This document shows, piece by piece, positions 4,942 to 63,412 of a DNA stretch of 64,000 bases (the stretch's first letter is position 1; the number at the start of each line of letters is the position of its first letter). Under the pieces are notes generated by a model that did not search any database, was not told the DNA's origin, and worked only from the letters and a program-made list of their open reading frames with translations. This DNA comes from Paracoccaceae bacterium (GTDB lineage Bacteria; Pseudomonadota; Alphaproteobacteria; Rhodobacterales; Rhodobacteraceae). The position numbers and the translations under genes were made by a program. The stretch lies in the NCBI GenBank assembly GCA_029248915.1, contig JAQWIK010000109.1, positions 10,563 to 74,562 on the forward strand, written 5' to 3'.

Positions 4942-4974
4942 TAGGTTGTTAAAAGTAGTTAAGTAGGTTACCAT

Positions 4975-5742: not shown

Positions 5743-5814
5743 ATCTGCGGATAACTCAAATCAGACTTGAAGGAAAGTGGGCAATATTCCAATTGGTACA
5801 ATGAAAATATAGAA

Positions 5815-47588: not shown

Positions 47589-48509
47589 ATGCAAATTTAT
47601 CTTCCAATAGCTGAAGTTTCAGTGAACGCTTTCCTTTTACTTGGCTTAGGTGGAGTGGTTGGTATTCTCTCCGGAATGTTTGGTGTTGGTGGTGGTTTCT
47701 TAATGACGCCGCTTCTGTTCTTTATTGGCATTCCCCCAGCTGTTGCAGTTGCAACAGAAGCAAATCAGATAGTTGCGTCCTCATTTTCAGGAGCATTGGC
47801 TCATTTAAAACGTAAAACTGTTGATTTAAAAATGGGTTTAATTCTTCTGATTGGTGGTCTTTTGGGGGCTGGAATTGGATTGATTATTTTTAATTATCTT
47901 AAAAGCCTTGGCCAAGTCGATTTACTTGTAAAACTTTGCTATGTTGCTTTCTTAGGTATTATTGGCAGTTTGATGTTTATAGAAAGCTTGCGGGCAATTT
48001 TAAAAACGCAGAGCGGTTTAATACCAAAAAAAGTTCGCAGACCAAGAAGTTTGGCACAACAATTACCCTTTAAAATGCGTTTCAGAACCTCAGGGCTATA
48101 CATTTCCGTAATACCACCAATATTGGTCGGTCTCTTAGTAGGGATCTTATCAGCAATAATGGGTGTTGGTGGTGGGTTTATTATGGTGCCAGCTATGATT
48201 TACATACTTGGCATGCCGACAAAAGTTGTAGTAGGAACATCACTTTTTCAAATTATTTTTGTTACAGGTTTTACAACCATATTGCATGCAACAACAAATT
48301 ACACAGTTGATATAGCTTTGGCTGTTCTTTTACTTTTGGGAGGTGTAATTGGTGCTCAATTCGGTAGCCAGTTTGGAACACGTTTACGGGCTGAACAGTT
48401 GCGAATTCTATTAGCATTAATGGTTATTGCTGTTTGCTTAAAAATTGCCCTCGACTTGTTGATTATGCCAACTGAACTGTACTCAATCAGCAATGCGAGT
48501 ATGCACTAA
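47589..48509 (+). CDS. TSUP (TauE/SafE) family anion exporter
   Basis: 306 aa. Two internal repeats, each with the GVGGGF(L/I)M(T/V)P motif. Confidence 0.8.
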   Translation: MQIYLPIAEVSVNAFLLLGLGGVVGILSGMFGVGGGFLMTPLLFFIGIPPAVAVATEANQIVASSFSGALAHLKRKTVDLKMGLILLIGGLLGAGIGLIIFNYLKSLGQVDLLVKLCYVAFLGIIGSLMFIESLRAILKTQSGLIPKKVRRPRSLAQQLPFKMRFRTSGLYISVIPPILVGLLVGILSAIMGVGGGFIMVPAMIYILGMPTKVVVGTSLFQIIFVTGFTTILHATTNYTVDIALAVLLLLGGVIGAQFGSQFGTRLRAEQLRILLALMVIAVCLKIALDLLIMPTELYSISNASMH

Positions 48510-49264: not shown

Positions 49265-50028
49265 CGTGGCGCCATTCTAATGGCACCATCTAAACGTATT
49301 ACCTCTCCATTCAACATATCGTTCTCAATAATCTGCACTACTAACTTGGCAAATTCCGTTGGTTTTCCTAATCGTGATGGAAATGGAACCTGTTTTCCCA
49401 AGGATTCTTGAACTTCTTCAGGCAGGCTTTCCAAGAGTGGTGTCAAAAATAATCCTGGTGCTATCGAACAGACACGAATGCCTTTATCCGAAAGATCCCT
49501 TGCCATAGGAAGTGTCATTCCTACGATACCACCTTTAGAAGCTGAATAAGCAACCTGACCTATCTGCCCATCATAAGCCGCAACTGATGCTGTATTTACT
49601 ATAACACCCCGAAAACCATCCTCCGAATACGCCCTATTTTTGACCATTTCAGCCGCACATATAGAAGCTACGTTGAAGGAGCCAATCAGATTAATGTTAA
49701 TCACTTTTGCAAATAGTTCACTTGAATGAGGTTCACCTCGTGAAACAGTTTTTGCTGCTGGACCTATTCCAGCACAATTTACAACAATCTGAATTCCATC
49801 ATTTTTCTTCAAAAAAGATAAAACCGCTTGGTTTACTGAATTTGTATCTGTTACATCAACCTTGTAAAAATCCGAATTTATTTCCTCCGAAACTGCTAAA
49901 CCTTTATTTTCATCTAAATCAAAAATAGCTACATTTGCACCCATGGAAGAAAGCGAACGCGCTGTTGCTTCACCCAGCCCGGAGGCACCTCCAGTAACTA
50001 CAGCTGATATTTTTTCATTTATTTCCAT
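49261..50028 (-). CDS. SDR family 3-hydroxyacyl-CoA dehydrogenase (HSD17B10-like)
   Basis: 255 aa. TGGASGLG, NCAG and catalytic YSASKGG. The C-terminal RLDGAIRMAPR is typical of type-2 hydroxyacyl-CoA dehydrogenases. Confidence 0.8.
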   Translation of the reverse strand: MEINEKISAVVTGGASGLGEATARSLSSMGANVAIFDLDENKGLAVSEEINSDFYKVDVTDTNSVNQAVLSFLKKNDGIQIVVNCAGIGPAAKTVSRGEPHSSELFAKVININLIGSFNVASICAAEMVKNRAYSEDGFRGVIVNTASVAAYDGQIGQVAYSASKGGIVGMTLPMARDLSDKGIRVCSIAPGLFLTPLLESLPEEVQESLGKQVPFPSRLGKPTEFAKLVVQIIENDMLNGEVIRLDGAIRMAPR

Positions 50029-50131
50029 TGATCACCTCACCATATTTTCTATTTTACTATACAAATTATTTCTTTTGGCTAAATTTTAAATGCGTTAAAT
50101 AATTTTTAAATATTGGCGTCAGGATAAACAA

Positions 50132-50566
50132 ATGACACAAAACAAACAACTTTTCAGAGAAGAGTTCCCTACCTTTGTCGAGATGCCAACTAGATGGATA
50201 GATAATGACGCCTATGGTCATATGAATAATATTGTCCACTATGCACTAATAGACACAGCTGTTACTGACTGGCAAAGAAACCGCGGGTTCTTTAGTGACG
50301 AACATAAATGTTTAGAATTTATGGTAGTAGAAAGTGGTTGTCGCTATTTTTCGGAAGCTGCATACCCAGATAAAATAGCAGTTGGCTTAAGAATAAAAAA
50401 AATTGGTAATACATCATGGGTATATCAAGCAGGGCTTTTTCGAGAAGAAGATGAACTGTGTTTTGCCCTCGGTTTTTTTGCCCAGGTTCTCGTAGACTGT
50501 GAAAAACGAAGGCCCGCACCTATTCCCAAGAAAATGCATGACGCATTAAAGTTGATAGAAATTTAA
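50132..50566 (+). CDS. Hotdog-fold acyl-CoA thioesterase (4HBT/YbgC-like)
   Basis: 144 aa. RWIDNDAYGHMNN matches the family pattern with the catalytic Asp in D-x-x-G-H-V-x-N. Confidence 0.7.
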   Translation: MTQNKQLFREEFPTFVEMPTRWIDNDAYGHMNNIVHYALIDTAVTDWQRNRGFFSDEHKCLEFMVVESGCRYFSEAAYPDKIAVGLRIKKIGNTSWVYQAGLFREEDELCFALGFFAQVLVDCEKRRPAPIPKKMHDALKLIEI

Positions 50567-50610
50567 TTTGACGCCCATAAAATGCAAAGGATAGTTATTA
50601 TTAAATAAGT

Positions 50611-51696
50611 TCAGAAATTGACCACTTGTCCAGTTTCAGCAGAGGCCTGGGCTGCATGCCCCATCCTTACAGCCCAAATTCCGTCGTCCAGAGTGACCTC
50701 TGGAGGCATTTTCCCATCCACCACGAGCATAAATTTTTGATGTTGATAAAAGGTAGAACCATTATGATCTCCTGCCTCTAATATCTTCTTATCTACGGGC
50801 ACCTCCATCTCTTTTAAAATAGATTTATCTCTAGGACTAACCACTATTTTTGATATTGGAGGAGCACCAAGTTTTTTAGGCCAAAACCTAGCAGGTCCTG
50901 GGATAAAAGCCTCAACTTTGCCAGCCTCTCCAGTGATTGATATCTCTTCTTGATACTTTGAACCTTCTGCAAACATACAGAGTTCCAGCATTGCCTTCAT
51001 ATTATTTTCAAACTCAACAATGACATATCCGTGATCCCAAATATCTGGTACCGAACCAGAGTAATCTTCCTTCAGGTGGTTAACGGCCTGCCCTCCACTT
51101 GCCATTATCTTAATTGGGTTAGACTTTGTAATTAACCTCATCAAATCAAAAAAATGACAGCATTTTTCAACAAATGTCCCTCCACTATTTTTATTAAATC
51201 TGTTCCAATTATCAACTTTAGGAAGAAAGGGAAATCTATGTTCACGGATGGAAAGCATTTTGATACCACCAGTTACATTTTTTTGCTGCCTGATTAGTTC
51301 TGCTATGGGTGGCATATATCGATATTCCATAGCCACCCAAACCGGTGCTGTGTATTGAACTAAAAAGTTTTGTACTCTCTCCAAGTGATTGATGTCAGTA
51401 AACAAAGGTTTTTCCACTAAAATTGGCTTATGAGGTACACTAGCCAATCGTTCCAATTGTTCCATGTGAAGATGATTTGGCGAAACTATTAACCAGCAAT
51501 CAATGTTTTCATCACTTAAAATTTCATCCAGAGAATCATAAAACTTGGACTCTGGAGCAAGTGCTTTTGCCATCTTCTGCATATTTAAATTAGGTTCATA
51601 AACAGCATAAGTTAAAGCATCATCTATTAAATTTATATTGCGAAGATGCTCTTGCCCCATCATTCCACAACCAATAATTCCATACCTTTTTTTCAT
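50611..51696 (-). CDS. Gfo/Idh/MocA family NAD(P)-dependent oxidoreductase
   Basis: I chose ATG 51696 (MKKRYGIIGCGMMGQEH), preceded by AGGAG that overlaps the gntR stop. Rossmann GxGxxG, VEKP motif and the GGTFVEKCCHFFD block are present. Confidence 0.8.
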   Translation of the reverse strand: MKKRYGIIGCGMMGQEHLRNINLIDDALTYAVYEPNLNMQKMAKALAPESKFYDSLDEILSDENIDCWLIVSPNHLHMEQLERLASVPHKPILVEKPLFTDINHLERVQNFLVQYTAPVWVAMEYRYMPPIAELIRQQKNVTGGIKMLSIREHRFPFLPKVDNWNRFNKNSGGTFVEKCCHFFDLMRLITKSNPIKIMASGGQAVNHLKEDYSGSVPDIWDHGYVIVEFENNMKAMLELCMFAEGSKYQEEISITGEAGKVEAFIPGPARFWPKKLGAPPISKIVVSPRDKSILKEMEVPVDKKILEAGDHNGSTFYQHQKFMLVVDGKMPPEVTLDDGIWAVRMGHAAQASAETGQVVNF

Positions 51697-51703
51697 AATG
51701 CTC

Positions 51704-52405
51704 CTAACTGATACGCGTCGTATAGCGTGCAATATTTGTATCGATCCAACTTCGTGAAAACTCTACAGGAGCTCCAACCTGATCGTATGCTAAACGTTCT
51801 ATGCAAACTGTTTCCTGACAATTCATTACTTTAAATTCCTTAGGAGACCAAACAGGCACTGGAAGTAAGGTAGCGCTGTCTTTAGCTGAAGTAATACGCA
51901 AATTAAGAATATCTTTATAAAAGAGATAAATAGACTGTGAAATATTATTAAATTTAAGGCCATCAGTTTTAATCGAGTCTAAGTAAATTTCTTCCAACAC
52001 GCAGGGTAGATTATCTAAGAAACGCAATCGCCTAATCCTCAGGCATTCATCTGATTCTCCAAAAAATGGTGAGGATTTTGGTTTTTTAACTAAATTGATG
52101 TCTAAATTTTTAGCTGAAGGCAAACCTCCGCCATCGATAAGCTCAACTCTAAAAAACGAGTAAATGGAATTAAATTTTGTATTAAATTTTATGTAATTAC
52201 CAGAACCGTGCCTTCGAAATAAAGCACCTTTTTTTTCAAGGTCTTTTAATGATTTGCGCAGTGTTCCAACAGAAATGTTGAGAGATTTGGCCAATTGTCT
52301 TTCAGGCAGAAGACGTTCACCATCAGATAACCGACCTGCTATTATTTCTCTCATAAGCATTTCACTAATTTGGATATAAACTGGTAAAGAAGTAGCTTCC
52401 GACAT
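51704..52405 (-). CDS. GntR family transcriptional regulator, HutC subfamily (UTRA effector domain)
   Basis: I chose ATG 52405 (MSEATSLPVYIQISEMLMREI...). Winged helix LPERQLAKSLNISVGTLRKSLKDLEKKGALFRRHGSGNYI plus an about 150-aa UTRA-like C-terminal domain. Confidence 0.85.
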   Translation of the reverse strand: MSEATSLPVYIQISEMLMREIIAGRLSDGERLLPERQLAKSLNISVGTLRKSLKDLEKKGALFRRHGSGNYIKFNTKFNSIYSFFRVELIDGGGLPSAKNLDINLVKKPKSSPFFGESDECLRIRRLRFLDNLPCVLEEIYLDSIKTDGLKFNNISQSIYLFYKDILNLRITSAKDSATLLPVPVWSPKEFKVMNCQETVCIERLAYDQVGAPVEFSRSWIDTNIARYTTRIS

Positions 52406-52494
52406 GCTTCCAAAATGTAAGTAATTTAAAAATTGATACACTATTGATTTACATATGTTGTAATGTTACGCAAGACTTAACATTAGGGGGGGCT

Positions 52495-53649
52495 ATGACC
52501 GTCGTACCAATAACATCTTATGAATTGAAGGCTGCAGAGATTTCTTGGTTCTCAGCTTTATGCTCTGACGATTATCAATTCTTGGGAGTTCCAGATGGAA
52601 ACCTTCGAAGTTCATGGGACCATTGTAGTCAAATAGTGAAAGAAGCGGAAAACTATGGATTTCGAAATATCCTTTGCCCGTCTTCTTATCAAGTTGGACA
52701 AGACACATTGAGCTTTGTGGCTGGTTGCGCTCCAATAACGGAAAAAATTAATATGCTCGCTGCAGTAAGGTGCGGTGAAATGCAACCCATTATGCTCGCC
52801 CGAACTATCGCCACTTTAGATCACATGCTAAAAGGTCGACTTACTATTAATATCATTAGTTCCGATTTTCCTGGGGAAACCGCTGAGAGTGGATATCGAT
52901 ATAAACGTTCACGGGAAGTAGTTGAAATTTTAAAACAAGCATGGACACAAGATGAGATCAACTATGAAGGTGAGACATACAAATTTTCAGGTCTTACAAC
53001 TGATCCTTCAAAGCCTTTTCAAATTGGAGGACCGCTACTTTATTTCGGTGGCTATTCTCCACCAGCTCTTGAACTATGTGGACAACATTGTGATGTATAT
53101 CTCATGTGGCCTGAACCAAAAGAACAAATAATTAGCCGAATGAAATCTGTAAATGAAGTAGCTGAAAAATATAATAGAACCCTCGATTATGGTTTGAGAG
53201 TTCATATGATTGTTAGAGATTCCGAAATAGAGGCCAAAGAATATGCTGAGTACATAGTGTCAAAGCTAGAGGATGACTTTGGGAAGAAAATTAGAGAGCG
53301 GGCGCAGGACAGCTCTTCCTTGGGAGTATCGCACCAAACAAAAAATAGAAAAATGGCGGATGAATTCGGTTACGTCGAACCTAATCTTTGGACAGGAGTG
53401 GGTAGAGCAAGATCTGGATGTGGCGCTGCTATTGTTGGATCAACTGATCAAGTGATGAGTGAATTGGAACAATATCAGAAATTAGGAATTCGTTCTTTTA
53501 TCCTATCTGGGTACCCCCACCTTGAAGAATGTAAACATTTTGGCTCAAAGGTCTTGCCAAATATAAAAACTTGTTCTTTACCACATGAGTACGGACGAGT
53601 TCCCAACAATACACCTTCAACTCCACTTGGGATAGGGGAGCGTCACTAA
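52495..53649 (+). CDS. SsuD-family (alkanesulfonate-monooxygenase-like) FMNH2-dependent LLM monooxygenase
   Basis: I chose ATG 52495, preceded by a G-rich SD. Blocks LLYFGGYS, DVYLMWPEP, LRVHMIVRDSE, EPNLWTGVG, GAAIVGSTDQV and FILSGYPHLEE line up with E. coli SsuD as I recall it (PLYFGGSS, DLYLTWGEP, IRLHVIVRET, SPNLWAGVG, GTALVGDGPTV, FVLSGYPHLEE). Confidence 0.85.
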   Translation: MTVVPITSYELKAAEISWFSALCSDDYQFLGVPDGNLRSSWDHCSQIVKEAENYGFRNILCPSSYQVGQDTLSFVAGCAPITEKINMLAAVRCGEMQPIMLARTIATLDHMLKGRLTINIISSDFPGETAESGYRYKRSREVVEILKQAWTQDEINYEGETYKFSGLTTDPSKPFQIGGPLLYFGGYSPPALELCGQHCDVYLMWPEPKEQIISRMKSVNEVAEKYNRTLDYGLRVHMIVRDSEIEAKEYAEYIVSKLEDDFGKKIRERAQDSSSLGVSHQTKNRKMADEFGYVEPNLWTGVGRARSGCGAAIVGSTDQVMSELEQYQKLGIRSFILSGYPHLEECKHFGSKVLPNIKTCSLPHEYGRVPNNTPSTPLGIGERH

Positions 53650-54539
53650 TGGAAAGAATTAAAATAAGTTCAACGCTTACCATGTCCCAGTTGGTTTACG
53701 GTATGTGGCGATTAGGTGATGATGAAGATACATCGCCGGACCATGTACGAAATAAAATCGAAAGTTGTTTGGACCAAGGAATAACCTCCTTTGATCAGGC
53801 CGATATTTATGGCGGCTATGAGGCTGAAGAAATTCTAGGAAATGCACTTAAAGGTTCAAGCCTACGTCAAAAAATGGAAATTGTTACCAAGTGCGATATC
53901 GTCGCTCCAGTAGGTAGGTATAAAAATGCTCGCGTTAAGTATTATGATACGTCAAGAGACCATATTTTAAATTCAGTAGAGCAATCTTTAAAGCTAATGG
54001 GTATCGACTACATTGACTTGCTTTTACTTCATAGACCTGATCCATTGATGGATCACTTTGAAACCGGTGCTGCACTTGATGAAATAATTGCTTCTGGGAA
54101 AGTAAGAAATGTGGGCGTTTCAAATTTCAAACCGTGGGATTGGAATTTATTGCAAACTGGGATGAAAAATAAACTTGTCACCAATCAAATTGAGTTAAGC
54201 GTTCTTGCTCACGACGGCTTCACAAATGGAGACGTTGCATTTCACCAAAGTAAAAATACTCCAATTATGGCGTGGTCTCCCTTAGGGGGAGGAGACATAT
54301 TTTTAAAATCTAACGAAAAGATTTTGAATCATCTGGATAGTATAGGAAAAACATTTGGCTTCGAGCCAGGGACGGTCGCCGTTGCCTGGTTGCTCGCACA
54401 CCCTGCCAATATTTTACCTGTGCTAGGAACAAACTCATTGGCCCGAATAGAGACAATTTCAAAAGCCTTAGAGGTTAAATTGGATAGACAAACTTGGTTT
54501 GAAATTTATACAGCTGCGCTTGGACGTGAAGTTGCTTAG
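53649..54539 (+). CDS. Aldo-keto reductase, YdhF-like
   Basis: 296 aa. DQADIYGGYEAEE, DLLLLHRPDPLMD and VGVSNF blocks are very like E. coli YdhF from memory. TAATG overlap with the monooxygenase gene. Confidence 0.85.
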   Translation: MERIKISSTLTMSQLVYGMWRLGDDEDTSPDHVRNKIESCLDQGITSFDQADIYGGYEAEEILGNALKGSSLRQKMEIVTKCDIVAPVGRYKNARVKYYDTSRDHILNSVEQSLKLMGIDYIDLLLLHRPDPLMDHFETGAALDEIIASGKVRNVGVSNFKPWDWNLLQTGMKNKLVTNQIELSVLAHDGFTNGDVAFHQSKNTPIMAWSPLGGGDIFLKSNEKILNHLDSIGKTFGFEPGTVAVAWLLAHPANILPVLGTNSLARIETISKALEVKLDRQTWFEIYTAALGREVA

Positions 54540-54560
54540 TGACAGCGGAATTAGATTTTA

Positions 54561-55022
54561 ATGAAAAATCAGGATGAGTTCAGATTTGCTTTAGGGAAGT
54601 ACACAACAGGGGTCACAATTGTTACCTGTAACGGTAAAAATGGCCCGATAGGAATTACAGCAAATAGCTTTTCAAGCCTGTCTTTATCACCCCCATTAGT
54701 TCTATGGTCACCGGCAAAGGCTTCCAAAAGACATGATACTTTTTTAAAAGCTGAAAAGTTTACAATTCATATTGCTGGTGAACATCAAATTGAGCTATGC
54801 AAAAGCTTTTCAAAGAGCGCTGATGGTGGAAGTGAAATGAATTGGAATTTCAATGATGAAGGTGAAGCCTTTATCAAAAATTGTTCCGCACGGTTTGAAT
54901 GCACAAAATATAGTCACTTTGACGGAGGCGACCATTCAATTATCGTGGGAGAGGTGAAAAAGTTTGAAACTACGGACAATAAACCGTTAGTATATTGGGG
55001 AGGCAATTACCAAAAACTTTAA
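54561..55022 (+). CDS. Flavin reductase (HpaC/RutF-type, NAD(P)H:flavin oxidoreductase)
   Basis: 153 aa. FRFALGKYTTGVTIVT, ITANSFSSLSLSPPLVLWS and DHSIIVGEV blocks are typical of the short flavin reductases that partner two-component monooxygenases. Confidence 0.8.
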   Translation: MKNQDEFRFALGKYTTGVTIVTCNGKNGPIGITANSFSSLSLSPPLVLWSPAKASKRHDTFLKAEKFTIHIAGEHQIELCKSFSKSADGGSEMNWNFNDEGEAFIKNCSARFECTKYSHFDGGDHSIIVGEVKKFETTDNKPLVYWGGNYQKL

Positions 55023-55124
55023 TATTTGACGAAATTCAGAAATATGAAGATAACAAAATTTTAAATAATTTTTTGTTTTTATATCACCAAACTTTTCTGT
55101 TTGACCTATTTTAGATTTTAGAGT

Positions 55125-55159
55125 TTGGTAGCGCTACCAATGGTGCAAATTTTAGCACC
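55125..55159. promoter_or_regulatory. Candidate operator: perfect 16-bp palindrome plus adjacent imperfect palindrome
   Basis: TTGGTAGCGCTACCAA (55125-55140) is a perfect palindrome. One base later comes GGTGC-aaatttta-GCACC (55142-55159). Both lie about 80-110 nt upstream of the binding-protein ATG and just upstream of TATATT (55160-55165). The TGGT...ACCA half-sites resemble HutC/GntR-type operators. Confidence 0.45.
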
Positions 55160-55237
55160 TATATTTTATAAATTAGGTCATCTAGTGACTTAGTTTTTTA
55201 GTACAACTAAAATGTTTCTACTCTCGGGAGGAAAAGA

Positions 55238-56581
55238 ATGAAACGTAATATTAAATCTTTAAGTATCGCAGCTGCTCTGTCCTTAAGTTTTGGGACCATG
55301 GGGATCGCGGGTTCTCACGATGTTTGCAATACGCCATCAAAGTTAGGTGACATGGGAAGTTTTCCTGGCGAAGTCATAACTATGCAAGGATCAATGTTAG
55401 GCACTGACCAAGAAATGTTAGAAAATACCATTAGCTGCTTTGAAAAGGCAACTGGTGCAACAGTTCAATATTCTGGGTCATGTGATTTTGCAGCCCTCGT
55501 CGTTGCAGACATGCGTTCGAATAACCCACCTAACATCGCAATTTTTCCACAACCGGGTCTTGCAGCTGACATGGCCGCGGAAGGTCACCTTATTCCAATT
55601 GGTGATGATGCAGCCTCTTGGATGGCTGATAATTACGGAGCCGGCTCTTCATGGGTCGATCTTGGAACTTATGCCGATGCCAGCGGCAATAAGAATTTCT
55701 ATGGATTTGCATACAAAATGGATCTGAAATCTTTAGTTTGGTATTCACCTGAGCAATTTGAAGATAATGGCTATGAAATTCCTTCTACAATGGAAGAACT
55801 AATTGAGCTTTCTGATCAAATGGTTGCGGATGGCAACACTCCTTGGTGCATAGGTGTGGAGTCTGGAAATGCGACTGGATGGACCGCAACAGACTGGATG
55901 GAAGACATCATGCTACGCACAACTTCAGCGGAAAACTATGATCGGTGGGTTTCAAATGACCTTGCCTTCAATAGTCCTGAAGTAATCAACGCAATGAACC
56001 TTTATGGTCAATTTTCTAGGAATGACGAGTACGTCGCCGGTGGAGCATCATCAGTAGCTACCACGTCTTTCGGTGATGCGCCGAAAGGTTTGTTTACTTC
56101 ACCACCAAGGTGTATGATGCATCGTCAAGCCTCTTTTATCACAGGTTTTTTTCCTGATAAAGGAGAAGAAGTTGCACGCGGTGAGGCAGATGCTTTCTAC
56201 TTCCCTCCATTCGCATCGGGAAATTTAGGAAATCCAGTTCTTGGCGCAGGGACCCTGTACACAATGGCTAAAGACTCGCCTGCAACTCGTGCATTCTTTA
56301 AATATTTGCAAGAAGCCTCAGCTCATGAAGCTTGGATGCAGCAAGGTGTATTCCTAACTGCGCACAAAGGCGCTGACTTATCTGCTTATGCAACACCACT
56401 TCTTAGAAAGCAGGGAGAAATCCTAGCAAATGCAACAACTTTCCGTTTTGACGCTTCTGACTTAATGCCTGGTGCAATTGGAGCAGGTGCTTTTTGGAGC
56501 GAAATGACAGCATTTGCAAACGGACAGGATGCAAAAAGAACAGCTGACAATATTCAAGCAGCATGGGACGCTATTAAGTAA
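55238..56581 (+). CDS. aglE: Sugar ABC transporter substrate-binding protein (AglE-like, alpha-glucoside type)
   Basis: 447 aa. Signal peptide, family-1 extracellular solute-binding protein, GGAGG SD. First gene of an SBP-permease-permease-GH13-ATPase array, identical in order to Sinorhizobium aglEFGAK. The symbol is given by gene order only. Confidence 0.7.
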   Translation: MKRNIKSLSIAAALSLSFGTMGIAGSHDVCNTPSKLGDMGSFPGEVITMQGSMLGTDQEMLENTISCFEKATGATVQYSGSCDFAALVVADMRSNNPPNIAIFPQPGLAADMAAEGHLIPIGDDAASWMADNYGAGSSWVDLGTYADASGNKNFYGFAYKMDLKSLVWYSPEQFEDNGYEIPSTMEELIELSDQMVADGNTPWCIGVESGNATGWTATDWMEDIMLRTTSAENYDRWVSNDLAFNSPEVINAMNLYGQFSRNDEYVAGGASSVATTSFGDAPKGLFTSPPRCMMHRQASFITGFFPDKGEEVARGEADAFYFPPFASGNLGNPVLGAGTLYTMAKDSPATRAFFKYLQEASAHEAWMQQGVFLTAHKGADLSAYATPLLRKQGEILANATTFRFDASDLMPGAIGAGAFWSEMTAFANGQDAKRTADNIQAAWDAIK

Positions 56582-56603
56582 TAATAGCTACCAAACAAGC
56601 TTT

Positions 56604-56631
56604 AAGAGCACAGGGTAAAACCTGTGCTCTT
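56604..56631 (+). terminator. Intra-operon hairpin after the binding-protein gene (attenuator or mRNA-stabilising element)
   Basis: Perfect 11-bp stem AAGAGCACAGG / CCTGTGCTCTT with a 6-nt loop. It is followed by ATTTAATTA, which is a weak U-tract, so it is probably only a partial terminator. Confidence 0.45.
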
Positions 56632-56660
56632 ATTTAATTATCACTAGGTAAACCAAATAC

Positions 56661-57914
56661 ATGCGGTCAGTACAATCGATAATATTTAGCAATAGCTTAG
56701 CTATCGTATTAACGATTGTCTGCGTGCTACCAATTACTGCTGTTTTCATTTTTTCATTAACTGCGCCAATAGATGATGCTTTCGCCAATTTTGGTCTCTG
56801 GCTCCATGATAAATACAATTGGTCTGTAGCTATTTTTGTTACTGAACTTAGATTTGCAAAAGTAGGATTTGCACTACGATCTGTGATAATAGCTTTATTT
56901 ATTTCATTCCTTTATTATTGGATCGCAAATTGGCTCAACTTTGGATTAGCAAATTTCCGATCAAGCAATTCAATCGGGAAAAGGTCAGTAATTGCAGAAG
57001 CTATTCAGCCCTGGATATTTGTAGGGCCAGCATTGATCTTACTCTTACTATTTTTGCTAATTCCTGCACTCACTACATTGAAAATTTCTTTCACAGAACC
57101 TGGTGGAACAGCTTCAGTTAGCAACTATTCATTTCTGTGGGACCAAAATGCTTTAGGTTATATGCAATTTAGGTTGGCTATGAGAAATAGTTTAATGTGG
57201 TTAATTTTAGTACCATCGCTTTGTATAGTATTTGGATTACTTATTGCCGTTTTAGCCGACTCAGTAAGGTGGGGGGTCGTCGCAAAAACATTTATTTTCG
57301 TACCCTTGGCCATCTCGTTTGTTGGAGCAGCCGTGATCTGGCGAAATATCTTGGCAGGTGGAGGTATCGAACCACAAGAAGCAATAAACGGAGTTACACC
57401 TTCCTACCAAATAGGACTACTAAAGGCACTATTAGGACATACACCCGAGTATAATGAACCACTTTATAATCTCAAATTTTGGGGCAACTTTTACCTAATG
57501 TGGATTATGGTATGGATCAAAACCGGTTTTGCGATGGTTATTTTTTCTGCTGCGTTGAGAGGGGTACCGCAAGAGACGGTCGAGGCTGCTATAATTGATG
57601 GAGCTAACCCTCGGCAGCTATTCTTTAGAATAAAGTTACCACAAATTTTTTCAACTGTGGTGGTTGTATGGACATACCTTGTAACAGACGTTTTAAAGGT
57701 ATTCGATATTCCTTACGCATTATCCGCCAATGATGACGATAAGCTTTTGCTTGCTACTATGATGGAAGCTGCAATGAATACCTGGTCTATTGGTGGTAGT
57801 AATGTGGATAATTTATTCGCGGCTATCGCGATCATGCTCATGTTAACAGTTATTCCCCACATGATTTTCCTTGGTTGGCGTATACGCCGTGAACAAAAGC
57901 AATTAGAACATTAA
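56661..57914 (+). CDS. aglF: Sugar ABC transporter permease (MalF/AglF-like) with about 110-aa N-terminal membrane extension
   Basis: 417 aa. EAA-loop region (EAAIIDGANPRQLFFRIKLP). There is no in-frame ATG/GTG/TTG between 56661 and the canonical first helix, so the extension appears to be genuinely coded. Confidence 0.75.
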   Translation: MRSVQSIIFSNSLAIVLTIVCVLPITAVFIFSLTAPIDDAFANFGLWLHDKYNWSVAIFVTELRFAKVGFALRSVIIALFISFLYYWIANWLNFGLANFRSSNSIGKRSVIAEAIQPWIFVGPALILLLLFLLIPALTTLKISFTEPGGTASVSNYSFLWDQNALGYMQFRLAMRNSLMWLILVPSLCIVFGLLIAVLADSVRWGVVAKTFIFVPLAISFVGAAVIWRNILAGGGIEPQEAINGVTPSYQIGLLKALLGHTPEYNEPLYNLKFWGNFYLMWIMVWIKTGFAMVIFSAALRGVPQETVEAAIIDGANPRQLFFRIKLPQIFSTVVVVWTYLVTDVLKVFDIPYALSANDDDKLLLATMMEAAMNTWSIGGSNVDNLFAAIAIMLMLTVIPHMIFLGWRIRREQKQLEH

Positions 57915-57928
57915 GAGGTTGTTAAAAT

Positions 57929-59155
57929 ATGTTTAATCGTTCTTTTGCTCACATTATCCTGGCATTAATTTTGGTAATATGGGTGGTTCCCTTTATCGCT
58001 CTTATAACAACATCGTTCAGATCAGAAGTTGCATCTAAAACTTCAGGTTTTTGGACAGCATTCACGCCAACTGAACTTGGGCATCGCTTTAGTACACATG
58101 ACAAAGGGCAACAATTCAAAGTCATCGAAATGCGCGGTAATATTTTTGAACGGATAAATAAGAGCGAAGAATGGTTTACGATATCTGGGGGAATAAACTC
58201 AATTATGTTTAAGGGTAGAGTGCCTGACCCCGATAAACCAGGTAAAACCAAGTTAATTCGAAAACTAGTGCCCGCAGGCGAAGTCATGGATGTTCGCGGT
58301 GGGGAATTTATTTTCCAAGCTAACGGTGATTTTATTTGGTCTTTTCCAGAAGCAACAGCACCAAAGCCAAAAAACCTTGATGTTTTTATTAATCAAGATC
58401 CAGTATTTGGAGCGGAGGCCTATTTTGAGGTCTTGTTAGATAACAAAGACGTTCCAAACGCTCTGATATCTTCCTTTATCGTGGTGGTGCCCGCAACAAT
58501 AATTCCTATTACAGTTGCTGCGTTTGCTGCATATGCTTTTTCATGGATGCAGTTTCCAGGCCGAGACTGGTTATTTATACTTGTAGTTTCACTGATGGTG
58601 GTGCCAACCCAGTTAGCTTTTTTACCAATTTTACAGGGCTTCAACGGGCTTGCAAGCTGGGCTACTGCACTTAAACAATGGACGACGGATTGCGAATTGA
58701 CAAACACATGCCAATTCCCAACTAAGTCATTCGCAGGTTTGTGGCTTACTCATACAGGCTTTGGCCTTCCTCTCGCTATCTTTCTTTTGCGCAATTACAT
58801 CGTAGGATTGCCGCGGGAATTACTTGAGAGCGCCAAAATCGACGGTGCTAATCACATGCAAATTTTTGTGAAAGTAGTTATACCACTTTCTGTACCAGCA
58901 CTCGCTTCATTCAGTATTTTCCAGTTTCTCTGGATCTGGAATGATCTATTGGTAGCTATGTTTGTTGGACCTACTGCAAATGATGATGTAGTTTTTCCAA
59001 TTTTACTAGAAAGACAATTAGGAACTTTTGGAGACCAACTTCATCTTCTGAATGCTTCCGCAGTGATTTCCATGGTAGTACCAGTGATAGTATTTCTTGC
59101 TATGCAAAAATATTTTATTAAGGGATTGCTCGCCGGATCCGTCAAGGGAGGCTGA
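57929..59155 (+). CDS. aglG: Sugar ABC transporter permease (MalG/AglG-like) with large periplasmic loop
   Basis: 408 aa. EAA loop ESAKIDGANHMQIFVKVVIP. An about 150-aa hydrophilic segment sits between the first and second helices. Confidence 0.75.
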   Translation: MFNRSFAHIILALILVIWVVPFIALITTSFRSEVASKTSGFWTAFTPTELGHRFSTHDKGQQFKVIEMRGNIFERINKSEEWFTISGGINSIMFKGRVPDPDKPGKTKLIRKLVPAGEVMDVRGGEFIFQANGDFIWSFPEATAPKPKNLDVFINQDPVFGAEAYFEVLLDNKDVPNALISSFIVVVPATIIPITVAAFAAYAFSWMQFPGRDWLFILVVSLMVVPTQLAFLPILQGFNGLASWATALKQWTTDCELTNTCQFPTKSFAGLWLTHTGFGLPLAIFLLRNYIVGLPRELLESAKIDGANHMQIFVKVVIPLSVPALASFSIFQFLWIWNDLLVAMFVGPTANDDVVFPILLERQLGTFGDQLHLLNASAVISMVVPVIVFLAMQKYFIKGLLAGSVKGG

Positions 59156-59158
59156 AAA

Positions 59159-60727
59159 ATGTCTACTTTGAAATGGTGGGAAAACGCCGTAATCTACCAA
59201 ATTTATCCCAGGTCATTTCAGGACTCAAATAGCGATGGCATTGGTGATCTCAACGGCATCGCCTCAAGATTGAATTATATTGCAGATCTTGGTGTTGATG
59301 CTATCTGGGTTAGCCCCTTTTTCATGTCTCCTCAATATGACTTCGGCTATGACGTATCTAACTATTGCGATATTAACCCTGAGTATGGGACCCTTACTGA
59401 TTTTGATAATCTAATTCAGAAAACTCATAAGCTTGGTTTACGCCTTATGATAGATATTGTCCCCGCACATTGTTCTTCCTTGCACCCTTGGTTTGAAGAA
59501 AGCCGCCAGTCTAGACATAACTCAAAAGCTGACTGGTTTCATTGGGTAGATCCAAAACCAGACGGATTACCACCTAATAATTGGTTATCGTTTTTTGGAG
59601 GCTTAGCTTGGTCTTGGGAACCACGGCGTCAACAATACTATTTACATAATTTTTTACCAGAGCAGCCAAATTTAAATCATGCGAACCCTCAGGTGCGTGA
59701 CGAGTTAAATAAAATAGCAAGATTTTGGTTTGACCGTGGCGTGGATGGTTTCAGATTAGACGCAGTCCACACAATCAACGGAGATACTGCACCTTACAGA
59801 GATAATTTAGCAGATCCAAATTTTGTTCTCGGGCCCTTACCCCAAGACAAACAACCTTCTTTTAGACAATTGCATGACGTGGCTCAACTTAATCAGCCAG
59901 TGATCCAGAGCTTTAGTTCAGCTTATAGAAAAATAGCTGACGAGTATGAAGGTGATCGCTTTCTTATGGGAGAGGTGGATGGAGACGAAGGTAATGCTAT
60001 GAACGTCAGTAAGACGTTTTCAGAACCTGGTCGGCTCCACGCAACTTATAATTTTGATCTGCTTGAATGGTCAGGATTGACAGTCTCTGAACTTAAAGAA
60101 GCTATTTCAAATGCAATAAAGGTTTTCAACGGATCAGGTCGACTATGCTTTGCCTTTTCTAACCACGACGTTCCAAGATCAGCAACTCGCCAACTGGAGC
60201 CACTTGAAATTTCACTGGATAAACAAGATAATTTGCAGCTGTTACTTCTTCAGCTGGAAACATCACTTATTGGCTCAACCTGTATCTATCAGGGTGAAGA
60301 ATTAGGTCTTTGTGACGTTACTGATATTCCTGTAACAAAAATGAAAGACCCCTGGGGTATAAACTTTCATCCTGAATTCTTAGGAAGAGATACATGCAGA
60401 ACACCTATGGTCTGGAATAAGAAACAGTCTATGGGTGGATTTACATCAGGAAATCAGTCCTGGTTACCAATAGCTGAACCTCATTTAGAAAAGGCCGCAC
60501 TGGAAATGGCAATAAATACTAAATCTGTATACAGTAAGTTTTCAAAATTCTTAAAATGGCGGAAAAAGCAGCCAGCGATGATGCATGCTAATATCATGTC
60601 AGAAGTGTCTGGTGGCCCTAAAGAAATAATTTTTGATAGAATGAGTGACTCTCAAAAATTGAGATGTAAATTTGATTTTGAAATGGTTAAAGCCACCTTT
60701 GAAGAGGTAAAGTATGGCACAAGTTGA
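59159..60727 (+). CDS. aglA: GH13 alpha-glucosidase (AglA / oligo-1,6-glucosidase-like)
   Basis: 522 aa. WWENAVIYQIYPRSFQDSNSDGIGDL start. Conserved regions DIVPAH (I), GFRLDAVH (II, nucleophile Asp), GEVDG (III, acid/base Glu) and FSNHDVPR (IV) are all present. Confidence 0.88.
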   Translation: MSTLKWWENAVIYQIYPRSFQDSNSDGIGDLNGIASRLNYIADLGVDAIWVSPFFMSPQYDFGYDVSNYCDINPEYGTLTDFDNLIQKTHKLGLRLMIDIVPAHCSSLHPWFEESRQSRHNSKADWFHWVDPKPDGLPPNNWLSFFGGLAWSWEPRRQQYYLHNFLPEQPNLNHANPQVRDELNKIARFWFDRGVDGFRLDAVHTINGDTAPYRDNLADPNFVLGPLPQDKQPSFRQLHDVAQLNQPVIQSFSSAYRKIADEYEGDRFLMGEVDGDEGNAMNVSKTFSEPGRLHATYNFDLLEWSGLTVSELKEAISNAIKVFNGSGRLCFAFSNHDVPRSATRQLEPLEISLDKQDNLQLLLLQLETSLIGSTCIYQGEELGLCDVTDIPVTKMKDPWGINFHPEFLGRDTCRTPMVWNKKQSMGGFTSGNQSWLPIAEPHLEKAALEMAINTKSVYSKFSKFLKWRKKQPAMMHANIMSEVSGGPKEIIFDRMSDSQKLRCKFDFEMVKATFEEVKYGTS

Positions 60728-61772
60728 ACTTAAAAATGTTGCGAAGTCTTTTGGAAAAACAGAAGTTATAAGAGACGTACACTTATCAATAGAAAAGGGG
60801 GAATTCGTTGTCTTCGTTGGCCCATCTGGTTGTGGGAAATCAACGCTACTGAGGCTAATTGCTGGTTTGGAAAACCTAACAGAAGGTGAAATTATAATAG
60901 CAGACAAACCAGTTATGGATTTACCTCCATCTGAACGCGGAATTGCTATGGTTTTTCAGTCATACGCTCTTTATCCACATATGTCTGTTTTTCAAAATAT
61001 GGCTTTTTCTTTAAGTCTCCAAAGCTTATCAAAAGATGATATCAAGAAACGAGTAGAGGCGGCAGCTAAAATTCTTCAAATGGAGCATCTTCTGGACCGT
61101 AGGCCAGCTGCGTTGTCTGGTGGACAGCGGCAACGTGTTGCTATTGGACGAGCGATCGTTAGAAATCCTGATGTATTTTTATTTGATGAACCGCTCTCAA
61201 ATTTAGATGCTGCACTACGACATGATACGCGCGTTGAGATCGCCAAATTACATAAGCAATTAGATGCTACAACTATATACGTAACCCATGATCAGGTTGA
61301 AGCCATGACCTTAGCTGACAAAATAGTTGTCCTAAAAGATGGAGAAATTATGCAAGTGGGATCGCCAATGGAATTATTCAATACGCCTGCAAATGAGTTT
61401 GTTGCTGGATTTCTTGGTTCACCAAAAATGAACTTTTTTGATGGGAATTTATCAAAAGTTACTAAAAGTGGCTCAACAGGGTCTTTTGCTGGAGAAGGTT
61501 TTACGGCAAATAGTATTCGGCTTAATTCACCAGAAAAGCGAGCTGAAGAAAAAATACTGTTGGGTATTCGCCCACAGCACTTACAAATCGATGTAAAAGG
61601 TAACTTGTCAGGTAAAGTGACATTAGTCGAAAAACTTGGAACGGAAACTGTTGTTGAATTGATTACTGAAAATGGAACCCCCTTCAGATATGCGGCGGCA
61701 GAAACTCCCAATATAACAACTGGAGACAAGCTAAAATTTAAATTCGAAAGTGATAAAGCTCACTTATTTTAA
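60714..61772 (+). CDS. aglK: Sugar ABC transporter ATP-binding protein (MalK/UgpC/AglK type)
   Basis: 352 aa. Walker A GPSGCGKST, signature LSGGQRQR, Walker B FLFDEPLS and a C-terminal TOBE-like domain. Overlaps the GH13 gene by 14 nt. Confidence 0.9.
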   Translation: MAQVELKNVAKSFGKTEVIRDVHLSIEKGEFVVFVGPSGCGKSTLLRLIAGLENLTEGEIIIADKPVMDLPPSERGIAMVFQSYALYPHMSVFQNMAFSLSLQSLSKDDIKKRVEAAAKILQMEHLLDRRPAALSGGQRQRVAIGRAIVRNPDVFLFDEPLSNLDAALRHDTRVEIAKLHKQLDATTIYVTHDQVEAMTLADKIVVLKDGEIMQVGSPMELFNTPANEFVAGFLGSPKMNFFDGNLSKVTKSGSTGSFAGEGFTANSIRLNSPEKRAEEKILLGIRPQHLQIDVKGNLSGKVTLVEKLGTETVVELITENGTPFRYAAAETPNITTGDKLKFKFESDKAHLF

Positions 61773-61799
61773 GCCAAATATTTATTCTAAATATGAGAC

Positions 61800-62573
61800 T
61801 TAATCTATCCACCTAGGTTTAGTCTTGTTTAGGAAGGCATCTATCCCGTGGCTGGCTTCCTCTCCCTCCCATATATCTGCTAACCGCTCTATAGTTCCTT
61901 CTATAACTTGCTCATCGATCCTCGGTCCTAGCGATCTTAACAGAGCTTTTGCTTCACCAACCGCTTTCGGTGCTGTTTGCAAATATGGATTGAGATGGCT
62001 CTCAACAGATTGATCAAGATTTTCTGAAATTTCTGATACTATGTTTAATTTTTTTGCCTCTACCTCGTTGAAAGTCTGACCTGACATAAATACTTCACGA
62101 GCTTTTGCCTCTCCCATTTTCCCAACAACATATGGTCCAATTGTGGAGGGTATCAGGCCCAAACGCGTCTCAGTAAAGCCAAATTTTACATTCGAACTTG
62201 ATATAACAAAATCACACACACAGGCTAAACCAACCCCACCTCCATATGCAGCGCCATGTAATTTCCCAATGAGGGGTACAGGAATTTCATTCAGCGCTTT
62301 TAACATCATGGCCAGTTTCCTAGCTTCAGAAATTCTTGTCAGCCTATCCGCTTTAATTTGGTTATTCATCCAGTCTAAATCTCCACCAGCACAAAATAAC
62401 TTACCAGCTCCCTGAATAACCACAGCGCGGGTATCAGGAGTTAACTTGGAAGTAAAACCTGTTAACTCTTCTATCATTTTTGCTGAGAGGGCATTACGTT
62501 TCTCCGGCCTATTCAAGGTAAGTGATACAACACCCCTTTTATCTTGATTAAACAATAAAGTTTCAAAATTCAT
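61800..62573 (-). CDS. Enoyl-CoA hydratase/isomerase family protein (probably methylglutaconyl-CoA hydratase)
   Basis: 257 aa. Crotonase fold with FCAGGDL and the GGGVGLA oxyanion hole. ATGA overlap with the upstream HMG-CoA lyase suggests a role in leucine catabolism. Confidence 0.75.
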   Translation of the reverse strand: MNFETLLFNQDKRGVVSLTLNRPEKRNALSAKMIEELTGFTSKLTPDTRAVVIQGAGKLFCAGGDLDWMNNQIKADRLTRISEARKLAMMLKALNEIPVPLIGKLHGAAYGGGVGLACVCDFVISSSNVKFGFTETRLGLIPSTIGPYVVGKMGEAKAREVFMSGQTFNEVEAKKLNIVSEISENLDQSVESHLNPYLQTAPKAVGEAKALLRSLGPRIDEQVIEGTIERLADIWEGEEASHGIDAFLNKTKPRWID

Positions 62574-63412
62574 TGACTAAGACTCCTCGCAAACTGAGCT
62601 GCTGTTTTTAGATTTTCTCTTTTGATACCAGTGCGAAAGCCTGTACTCTCTAAAAAATCAACCACTGCTTCCGTCGACACATTACCTTTTGCTCCAGGGG
62701 CGTAGGGACAACCACCCAAACCAGCGATAGAGGAATCAAAAGTTGTAATTCCAAATTCCGATGCAATGGCAATATTTTCAATCGCTTTTCCTTGTGTGTC
62801 ATGGAAATGTACTGCTAACTCCTTTGTTTGAAATACAGACAAAAGCTCCGACAATAGTTTTTTTGTGCTGTCTGGGTTAGCCGACCCCAAAGTATCACCT
62901 AAAGAAATCTCATAACACCCCATAGCCAGCAATTCTTCAGCAACTTTGATAACCTTATCGGGATTTGTAGGGCCATCATATGGGCAGTCCGTTACGCAAG
63001 AAACATATCCCCTTACAGGCATTGGTGCAGCATCCACAATTGGTCTAAATAATTGCAAGCTCTCTTTAATACTTTTGTTAATGTTGGCTTTTGAAAATCC
63101 CTCTGAGGCAGATCCAAATACTGCTATCTCGTCAGCTTTAGACTGAATGGCGCGATCCAATCCCTGTTCATTAGGCGTTAACGCCGTATAGGAAACACCC
63201 GGTTCCCGCTGAATACCATCCATGACCTGCTCTCCATCAGCCATTTGCGGAACCCATCTAGAACTTACAAAACTGGCAGTCTCTATTTTACTTAATCCAC
63301 TTTTTGATAACAGATTAACAAGTTTTATTTTTTCGATGGTATTGATAAATATGCTTTCATTTTGAAGACCATCTCTTGGACCCATCTCAAAAATAGTGAC
63401 ATCAGTTTCCAT
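62570..63412 (-). CDS. Hydroxymethylglutaryl-CoA lyase
   Basis: 280 aa. IFEMGPRDGLQNE start, HFHDT and GLGGCPYAPGAKGNV motifs. Confidence 0.9.
   Translation of the reverse strand: METDVTIFEMGPRDGLQNESIFINTIEKIKLVNLLSKSGLSKIETASFVSSRWVPQMADGEQVMDGIQREPGVSYTALTPNEQGLDRAIQSKADEIAVFGSASEGFSKANINKSIKESLQLFRPIVDAAPMPVRGYVSCVTDCPYDGPTNPDKVIKVAEELLAMGCYEISLGDTLGSANPDSTKKLLSELLSVFQTKELAVHFHDTQGKAIENIAIASEFGITTFDSSIAGLGGCPYAPGAKGNVSTEAVVDFLESTGFRTGIKRENLKTAAQFARSLSQ

Follow-up and report, generated by a model that had tools for sequence, protein, structure and literature searches.

A GH13 enzyme beside sulfoquinovose monooxygenase genes in a Paracoccaceae genome is very probably an ordinary alpha-glucosidase of an agl-type uptake cassette

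Does a glycoside hydrolase encoded beside genes for the degradation of sulfoquinovose (SQ) act on the sulfonated sugar? The question is raised by a 64,000-nucleotide (nt) stretch of DNA from a Paracoccaceae bacterium (GenBank assembly GCA_029248915.1, contig JAQWIK010000109.1, positions 10,563 to 74,562 of the forward strand), hereafter called the window, in which a gene for a protein of glycoside hydrolase family 13 (GH13; 59159..60727, + strand) lies among ATP-binding cassette (ABC) transporter genes that follow sulfoquinovose monooxygenase (smo) genes. A preliminary description of this DNA placed the gene where clusters of the SQ monooxygenase (sulfo-SMO) pathway carry a GH31 sulfoquinovosidase, and offered two readings: either a plain alpha-glucoside system lies next to a sulfonate module by chance, or a GH13 enzyme has been recruited to hydrolyse a 6-sulfonated or otherwise modified alpha-glucoside. 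Our analysis makes it very likely that the gene product is an exo-alpha-glucosidase of the ordinary, retaining kind, that it belongs to GH13 subfamily 23 (GH13_23; AglA type), and that it serves as the cytoplasmic hydrolase of a five-gene agl-type ABC cassette. The assignment draws on family membership, active site, orthology with the assayed enzyme MsGH13, synteny, distribution and purifying selection; the predicted substrate range of the window protein, hydrolysis of alpha-glucosides, is carried over from MsGH13.

The gene is an open reading frame with an ATG start that encodes 522 amino acids (aa). Its start lies 4 nt past the end of the gene for the second permease (57929-59155), and its last 14 nt are shared with the ATPase gene (60714-61772). 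In a Pfam profile search, the alpha-amylase catalytic domain PF00128 matched residues 14-475 at 387.7 bits (E 1.3e-115; cut-off 22 bits) over profile positions 1-444 of 446, which places the protein in GH13. The motif YDFGYD begins at residue 60 and region I (DIVPAH) occupies residues 99-104; region II (GFRLDAVH, from 197) supplies R199 and the nucleophile D201, region III (GEVDG, from 271) the acid/base E272, region IV (SNHD, from 334) H336 and D337, and the motif GRDTCR (from 409) R410. All of D61, Y64, H104, R199, D201, E272, H336, D337 and R410 are in place. The four conserved regions and the catalytic Asp/Glu/Asp, which the preliminary description had read correctly, align to the same residues of the GH13_23 enzymes HaG and XgtA.

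The closest solved relatives in a PDB search were XgtA (6AAV, 448 bits), HaG (3WY1, 438 bits) and QsGH13 (7VOH, 400 bits), and the next-best solved group reached at most 285 bits (sucrose hydrolase 6LGA, 285 bits). By these scores, characterised members of GH13_23 appear to be nearer relatives of the window enzyme than those of any other subfamily. The fold is that of GH13 and not GH31, so the protein is not a classical sulfoquinovosidase of GH31 subfamily 13; the Arg/Trp/Tyr sulfonate-binding triad of that group was defined on SmoI/YihQ (PMC8795539). NCBIfam contained no equivalog scoring over its cut-off for either the GH13 enzyme or the neighbouring binding protein, and the top NCBIfam match of the former, "beta-galactosidase BglA", was discarded as it scored far under its cut-off. 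An AlphaFold2 (AF2) model (predicted template-modelling score 0.83; mean predicted local distance difference test, pLDDT, 74.6) had XgtA, HaG and QsGH13 as its nearest folds, with template-modelling scores of 0.76-0.79. The ratio of nonsynonymous to synonymous substitution rates (dN/dS) was 0.053 against the orthologue on a related contig, L009, and 0.055 for SmoC; the GH13 gene is under purifying selection and has been retained. Seawater metatranscriptome contigs from four studies cover it.

The proposal that such an enzyme is a sulfoquinovosidase has already been published, tested and rejected, and in this respect the enzyme itself adds little that is new. In a 2023 preprint by the researchers who established the sulfo-SMO pathway (Li et al., bioRxiv 10.1101/2023.03.31.535182), MsGH13 (GenBank MAI18115.1) was taken from a metagenome-assembled genome (MAG) of "Marinovum sp." (NZGN01000053.1), where its gene lies in a cluster with smo genes and an ABC transporter cassette. 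The authors saw no GH31 gene in that cluster, proposed that MsGH13 was a non-classical sulfoquinovosidase, and then expressed and assayed it (10.1101/2023.03.31.535182). MsGH13 was inactive on the p-nitrophenyl (PNP) glycoside of SQ (PNP-SQ), on the 6-phosphorylated PNP glucoside 6-P-PNPGlc, on the PNP glucuronide PNPGlcA and on four other PNP glycosides, whereas it hydrolysed the PNP glucoside PNPGlc with retention of configuration and cleaved six alpha-glucobioses, namely maltose, nigerose, trehalose, sucrose, isomaltose and kojibiose (10.1101/2023.03.31.535182). Its authors assigned it to GH13_23 and found its linkage specificity broader than that of HaG (10.1101/2023.03.31.535182).

The eight active-site residues of MsGH13 (D61, H104, R199, D201, E272, H336, D337 and R410) bear the same numbers in the window GH13 and correspond in the alignment to the HaG residues that the MsGH13 authors name, and region I reads DIVPAH in both proteins. 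Short diagnostic motifs of the published sequence placed MsGH13 in our 90%-identity cluster 4, whose members have 522 aa and are 81-83% identical to the window GH13 (P0156, one such member, 81% without gaps). Because of this level of identity, we regard MsGH13 as the orthologue from a sister species and not as the same protein. Contig L009 (73 kb), which carries another member of the cluster, keeps the window gene order from a short-chain dehydrogenase/reductase (SDR) gene to an HMGL-like gene: as in the window, the genes for the SDR, a thioesterase, SqgA, a GntR regulator, SmoC, SmoB, SmoA, a binding protein, two permeases, GH13 and the ATPase follow one another. With the same active-site residues in an enzyme that failed on PNP-SQ, the suggestion that the window GH13 was recruited as a sulfoquinovosidase is not supported.

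The preliminary description also remarked that region I departs from the common D-x-V-x-N-H, and proposed inspection of the pocket around O6 for basic residues. The motif is as described, but it does not set this protein apart: HaG and XgtA have DQVISH and DQVLSH, which likewise lack the Asn, MsGH13 has DIVPAH, and Ala occupies position 103 in 78 of 81 GH13 relatives. As for the pocket, the subsite -1 residues in our alignment are those of HaG; these and the catalytic residues were invariant in 81/81 GH13 sequences, and no extra basic residue distinguished the enzymes encoded beside smo genes. In a tree of 85 GH13 sequences, the window enzyme's marine clade was well separated from ordinary AglA, while smo-adjacent and non-adjacent enzymes interleaved within the clade, the starred branches forcing at least seven state changes. 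No alignment column separated smo-adjacent from non-adjacent sequences in the GH13 or the binding protein, and a search of both for gained basic residues that track smo adjacency found none. Judged by these alignments, the GH13 enzyme is not specialised where it adjoins smo genes. The residues by which the marine clade differs from ordinary AglA cluster around subsite +1 (A103, F145, A202, H204 and N298), and these differences may relate to the broad linkage range of MsGH13, not to sulfonate binding.

If the GH13 enzyme is not the sulfoquinovosidase, which gene is? The sulfonate module reported in the preliminary description is real. The gene at 52444..53649 (+) encodes a SmoC orthologue, predicted to be the sulfoquinovose monooxygenase, which scored 691 and 675 bits to 7OLF and 7OH2 with the alignment starting at residue 18, and the true start probably lies near 52495. 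The gene at 53649..54539 (+) encodes a SmoB orthologue, a predicted 6-oxo-glucose reductase of the aldo-keto reductase type (403 bits to 7BBY/7BBZ), and that at 54561..55022 (+) a SmoA-like flavin reductase (PF01613) that is 46-60% identical to those of other Roseobacter smo clusters. The structures 7OLF and 7OH2 are those of SmoC and RoSmoC, and 7BBY/7BBZ those of SmoB (PMC8795539). Apparent stop codons in the SmoC matches of three genomes (G071, G039 and G121) were read as an artefact and not as signs of pseudogenes, because the alignment begins within the 17-residue N-terminal extension of the TTG-started query. Divergent from smoC lies a gene for a SmoD-like regulator of the GntR/HutC type (51704..52441, -; PF00392 and UTRA), which stands beside smoC in all Roseobacter loci examined.

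Next to the regulator gene, at 50611..51732 (-), we found a Gfo/Idh/MocA gene whose product is an orthologue of SqgA, the NAD+-dependent sulfoquinovosidase of family GH188. It scored 504 bits to 8ZN9 and 343/337 bits to 8QC2/8QC3 (FlSqgA and ArSqgA), aligned end-to-end over residues 15-372, and has the Gfo/Idh/MocA N-terminal domain together with the full-length similarity to solved SqgA that characterise GH188. The structures 8QC2 and 8QC3 are those of the founding GH188 NAD+-dependent sulfoquinovosidases (PMC10755693), and 8ZN9 is that of RdSqgA from Roseobacter denitrificans, which converts sulfoquinovosyl glycerol (SQGro) to SQ (PMC12780224). This gene, not a GH31 gene, is the candidate for the actual sulfoquinovosidase of the cluster. 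A search of the window's genome (2.02 Mb, 90% complete) gave no match to GH31 (PF01055), and showed the window GH13 to be its single GH13. What failed was the view that the cluster is without a sulfoquinovosidase. The MsGH13 preprint predates the knowledge of a GH188 SqgA in its cluster (10.1101/2023.03.31.535182), and the later discovery of that family removes the gap from which the hypothesis arose. Hydrolysis of the sulfoquinovoside would be assigned to the upstream GH188 NAD-dependent SqgA and not to the window GH13, and SmoC, SmoA and SmoB would then turn free SQ into glucose.

What still speaks for a recruited GH13 that acts as a non-classical sulfoquinovosidase or hydrolyses another 6-modified alpha-glucoside is its place inside an importer operon adjoining true smoCBA genes, the lack of a GH31 match in the genome, and the fact that GH13 can in principle accept 6-anionic substrates, as in trehalose-6-phosphate hydrolase (5BRQ), a distant relative at 259 bits. 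Against this stand MsGH13, which comes from a cluster with the same smo genes and failed on both the 6-sulfonated and the other 6-modified substrates, the HaG-like subsite -1 in which no additional basic residue sets the smo-adjacent enzymes apart, and the GH188 orthologue in the cluster. We consider such a recruitment very improbable. Still less credible is a swap in the order of steps, in which SmoC and SmoB would desulfonate intact SQGro to alpha-glucosylglycerol and the GH13 enzyme would cleave that product as the last step of the pathway. This order would account for an alpha-glucosidase kept with smo genes, and glycerol is accepted in subsite +1 by GH13_23 enzymes, to judge from 3WY3 and the title of the paper concerned. 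We reject it because the SmoC of Agrobacterium tumefaciens neither binds nor turns over SQGro and acts strictly on free SQ (PMC8795539), and because SqgA is present; the window SmoC matches that protein at 691 bits, the encoded SqgA yields free SQ, and the same type of GH13 is widespread without smo genes. A link to the SQ dioxygenase (sulfo-SDO) route was also considered and dropped, since a TauD-family gene lies 3' of the cassette in loci L002 and L045 and in no other loci.

The ordinary alpha-glucosidase that we favour fits the transporter genes around it. The cassette comprises genes for an AglE-like periplasmic solute-binding protein (55238..56581, +; PF01547; 53% identical to that of a Sinorhizobium meliloti locus and 56% to that of a Ruegeria sp. 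TM1040 locus), AglF-like and AglG-like ABC permeases (56661..57914 and 57929..59155, both +; PF00528; gene order kept in cassette loci), the GH13 enzyme, and an AglK-like ABC ATPase of the MalK/UgpC type (60714..61772, +; PF00005, OB_MalK and TOBE_2; UgpC/MalK subfamily in NCBIfam). In this CUT1-type ABC system, the GH13 gene thus has the position of an AglA-type gene, with the second permease gene before it and the ATPase gene after it. The comparison with Sinorhizobium aglEFGAK made in the preliminary description was apt: the order binding protein, two permeases, GH13 and ATPase recurs in S. meliloti (L013) and on the megaplasmid of Ruegeria TM1040 (L014), although L013 is unannotated and was equated with the aglEFGAK type by gene content and order, not as a named locus. 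The cassette would take up small alpha-glucosides such as maltose, sucrose, trehalose, nigerose and perhaps alpha-glucosylglycerol, and the GH13 enzyme would cleave the imported alpha-glucosides to glucose with D201 as nucleophile and E272 as acid/base.

The cassette is conserved across marine Alpha- and Gammaproteobacteria, both beside smo genes and away from them. In a survey of 120 Rhodobacteraceae genera, GH13 homologues occurred in 90 and binding-protein homologues (50-63% identical) in 80, about 4 kb from the GH13 homologue; SmoC occurred in 53, mostly unlinked to the cassette (on another contig or distant). A scan of species-representative genomes gave 80 marine-clade loci with a GH13 66-92% identical to that of the window. 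They belong to pelagic Rhodobacteraceae (MED-G52, HIMB11, Planktomarina and Ascidiaceihabitans), SAR116 (Puniceispirillaceae) and the gammaproteobacterial Granulosicoccaceae. Nearly all have the GH13 gene within the cassette, which in its common complete form is extended by genes for a GH1 beta-glucosidase (31 loci) and a divergently encoded regulator of the LacI type (21 loci); therefore, the cassette appears to be a general glucoside-uptake unit. In two loci, L038 and L051, a marine-clade GH13 (71-72% identical) occurs without recognisable binding-protein, permease or ATPase genes in its flanks.

Granulosicoccaceae and Halioglobus loci (L061, L077, L079, L081, L085, L088 and others) carry the whole cassette at 68-83% identity to marine Alphaproteobacteria, and because of this similarity between alphaproteobacterial and gammaproteobacterial loci, the data point to horizontal spread of the cassette among marine bacteria. 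The cassette is also uneven in its own divergence. In four Rhodobacteraceae loci (L034, L035, L037 and L075), identity to the window proteins is 89-94% for the binding protein and both permeases and only 70-75% for the GH13 and ATPase, and synonymous divergence from L009 rises from about 0.6-0.8 (sqgA to smoC) to 1.9-2.2 (GH13 and ATPase). These sequence comparisons suggest a mosaic cassette, with a recombination break that falls between the genes for the second permease and GH13.

Why, then, does the cassette adjoin smoA? Adjacency was counted in the 50 marine-clade species-level loci with enough upstream sequence. The smo genes stood beside the cassette in 18 of the 50 and nowhere upstream in 27; a flavin reductase gene alone was present in four, and the remaining locus was that of genome G121. 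In the 18 loci the cassette follows smoA directly, as in the window, or is inverted (G066), or is separated from the smo genes by a LacI-type gene or three Gfo/Idh/MocA genes. The reading of a plain alpha-glucoside system next to a sulfonate module by chance is accordingly right in essence as regards the enzyme; "by chance" is too strong, because the arrangement is found in 18/50 loci.

A possible origin of the arrangement is seen in G121, where the series runs SqgA, GntR, SmoC, SmoB, SmoA, the TRAP (tripartite ATP-independent periplasmic) transporter genes DctQMP, cytochrome c peroxidase, a second flavin reductase and the cassette. HIMB11, very close to G121 on the GH13 tree, has SqgA, GntR, SmoC, SmoB, one flavin reductase and the cassette, but not the block that runs from SmoA through to the peroxidase; its only flavin reductase corresponds to the cassette-side copy of G121 (83% identity, versus 71% to the other copy). 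Because HIMB11 keeps the cassette-side copy and the TRAP block is missing, loss of this block would be the simplest route to adjacency in the HIMB11 lineage, and a similar loss may explain the arrangement in the window. A widespread, horizontally mobile marine unit would in this way have come to adjoin smoA by block loss. The two flavin-reductase paralogues of G121, one after SmoB and one before the cassette, are 69% identical. A SmoA-like flavin reductase gene also lies directly 5' of the cassette without SmoC or SmoB nearby at L035:5384-5851, in relatives of that locus, and at L104:10782-11225; no SmoC was found in the MAG of L035 (1.4 Mb). On the 271-kb metagenome contig L003, which probably derives from SAR116 as judged by its GH13 relatives, three tandem Gfo/Idh/MocA genes (2764-5868; 339-350 aa) separate SmoB from the cassette; at 50% coverage, neither a flavin reductase nor an SqgA was matched there.

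Several points weigh against our assignment of an ordinary alpha-glucosidase, and we gather them here. The negative sulfoquinovosidase assay was made on a relative, from a cluster whose members are 81-83% identical to the window protein, and not on the window protein itself; it used PNP-SQ, and an assay on the natural glycoside SQGro is not mentioned in the part of the preprint available to us (10.1101/2023.03.31.535182). The AF2 model has low confidence in loops at the pocket entrance (residues 138-167, 205-245 and 397-418), and because of this the O6 pocket of the GH13 enzyme was assessed by alignment alone. The adjacency recurs in 18 species-level loci from two alphaproteobacterial orders, which exceeds a single accident. 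The cassette of this lineage has lost the adjacent LacI-type regulator and GH1 genes. Finally, RNA-library contigs bridge the spacer from smoA to the binding-protein gene, and because of these the cassette may be co-expressed with the smo genes; the metatranscriptome runs consist of assembled contigs, in which a bridging contig is no proof of a single transcript and depth cannot rank genes.

The regulatory sequences bear on this last point. About 100 nt 5' of the binding-protein gene lies a perfect 16-bp palindrome with the core AGCGCT (55125..55140), a candidate operator of the cassette that is unique in the window. A CAAAGCGCTTTG-type palindrome is seen at the same place only in cassette loci with a divergent LacI-type regulator gene, and shares the AGCGCT core with the window site, while the arms differ: those of the window (TGGT/ACCA) resemble HutC-type sites, and the core resembles LacI-type sites. 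No LacI gene adjoins the window cassette, and three LacI-family genes lie elsewhere in the genome. The gntR-smoC spacer (52442-52494) contains an 8-bp inverted repeat, TAATGTTA-N11-TAACATTA, which is unlike the cassette palindrome and is a candidate GntR operator. An operator shared by this spacer and the cassette was looked for and rejected; because the palindrome is unique and the spacer holds another inverted repeat, there is no evidence of GntR control over the cassette. A consensus scan of 50000-62600 for promoters and terminators gave counts equal to those of shuffled sequence.

In four seawater metatranscriptome runs, the bins over the binding-protein gene (55226-56795) were 5-50 times deeper than flanking smo, permease and GH13 bins, and a hairpin with a 12-bp stem lies between the binding-protein and permease genes (56603..56632, +). 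The excess depth and the hairpin fit the usual surplus of binding-protein mRNA, for which contig depth is only a hint.

A further explanation leaves the GH13 enzyme an alpha-glucosidase and gives the transporter a second cargo: in pelagic Roseobacter and SAR116 that lack the TRAP system, the agl-type transporter would also import SQ or SQGro in place of TRAP, and the GH13 enzyme would be kept because alpha-glucosides would still enter by the same importer, an example being alpha-glucosylglycerol, which is analogous to SQGro but carries no sulfonate. The typical Roseobacter smo cluster reads SqgA, GntR, SmoC, SmoB, SmoA, DctQ, DctM and DctP; by our own tally, roughly 37 of 54 SmoC-positive genera have an SMO-type DctP no more than about 5 kb away from SmoC, and the DctP orthologue of R. 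denitrificans has been examined for SQ/SQGro binding (PMC12780224). The window cassette begins 215 nt past smoA, in the TRAP slot. We searched for an SMO-type DctP orthologue and found none in the window's genome (G000), in G071 of the same genus or in G066; five other genomes in which the cassette directly adjoins smo genes, among them a complete 2.3-Mb chromosome and the genome of the isolate HIMB11, likewise yielded none. Because of this absence from the window's genome and its relatives, the cassette may double as an SQ/SQGro importer. The SQGro importer SmoEFGH of A. tumefaciens has been described as analogous to the maltose importer MalEFGK (PMC8795539), HaG was crystallised with glucose and glycerol (3WY3) and, according to the title of the paper, makes alpha-glucosylglycerol, and a 2026 review describes uptake of SQ compounds by aquatic bacteria as largely unknown.

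However, no pattern of residues in the binding protein follows smo adjacency; its counterparts in Granulosicoccaceae loci that have no smo genes within 10 kb are about 81-83% identical to it, and it is not detectably similar to the SQGro-binding protein SmoF (no match at E<=1e-3 in the PDB search). An empty transporter slot is also common, because several SmoC-positive genomes (G123, G124, G125 and G032) have the cassette on another contig and no transporter beside smoA. G121 has the TRAP system and the cassette together, and in the window's genome four other DctP-family and six SBP_bac_8 binding proteins could serve. Overall, we regard import of SQ or SQGro alongside alpha-glucosides as a speculative and rather unlikely addition to the alpha-glucosidase assignment, and we give the same low credence to the corresponding role of the cassette as an unrecognised SQ/SQGro importer of TRAP-less pelagic Roseobacter (HIMB11 and Planktomarina-like relatives) and SAR116. 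If it were true, a single binding protein would take alpha-glucosyl and alpha-sulfoquinovosyl solutes of the glycerol type from phytoplankton, with the GH13 enzyme cleaving the alpha-glucosyl solutes and SqgA the sulfoquinovosyl ones, and glucose would be the end product of either route.

To judge from their genes, Roseobacter smo clusters have diverse transporter partners. At L015:4759-6408 (G094, Rhodobacteraceae), SmoB is followed on the other strand by a different CUT1-type ABC system, whose ATPase and permease share 53% and 28% identity with their window counterparts, and an ordinary agl cassette lies 12 kb beyond it. In the window, a TauE/SafE-type exporter gene (47589..48509, +; PF01925), with a possible role in sulfite export, and a partner Alph_Pro_TM gene occupy 47589-49264, between BMP-type ABC permease genes and the SDR gene; both are absent at the corresponding place in contig L009 of the MsGH13 lineage.

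For annotation, the case is a warning that the substrate of a glycosidase is not necessarily a sulfosugar just because its gene lies inside a sulfosugar cluster. The residual value of the locus lies in transport, as abundant pelagic lineages with small genomes that are without the TRAP system of cultured Roseobacters carry this cassette instead.

Among characterised enzymes, HaG of Halomonas sp. H11 (3WY1-3WY4) and XgtA of Xanthomonas (6AAV) are similar to the window GH13 over its full length (42-43% identity), with an identical catalytic triad and identical subsite -1 residues; HaG differs in having Ser, Thr and Asn where the marine clade has A103, A202 and H204. The marine-clade residues A103, F145, A202, H204 and N298 correspond to S, I, T, N and A/S, respectively, in ordinary AglA-type enzymes of Rhodobacteraceae and Sinorhizobium. 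Operons of the aglEFGAK type in S. meliloti and Ruegeria sp. TM1040 contain the same five genes in the same order, with identities of 53/41/40/46/53% for L013, and many agl-type loci have a divergent LacI-type regulator gene and a palindrome with the AGCGCT core before the binding-protein gene. The window cassette differs from this type in belonging to a distinct marine clade, in having longer permeases and no adjacent LacI or GH1 gene, and in directly following smoA.

The smoABCDEFGHI cluster of A. tumefaciens C58 (PMC8795539) resembles the window in its SmoC, SmoB, SmoA and GntR regulator and in an ABC importer with a glycosidase gene by the permease genes. In that cluster, however, the glycosidase is the GH31 sulfoquinovosidase SmoI, whereas in the window it is a predicted GH13 alpha-glucosidase; the window binding protein is unlike SmoF, and the window sulfoquinovosidase would be the GH188 SqgA, whose gene lies beyond that of the regulator. 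The closest match to the core is the Roseobacter sulfo-SMO cluster, as in R. denitrificans OCh 114 and D. shibae (PMC10755693, PMC12780224), which has SqgA (-), GntR (-), SmoC, SmoB and SmoA in the order of the window. Most of these clusters continue with the TRAP genes DctQMP, whereas that of the window continues with the agl-type cassette that holds the GH13 gene.

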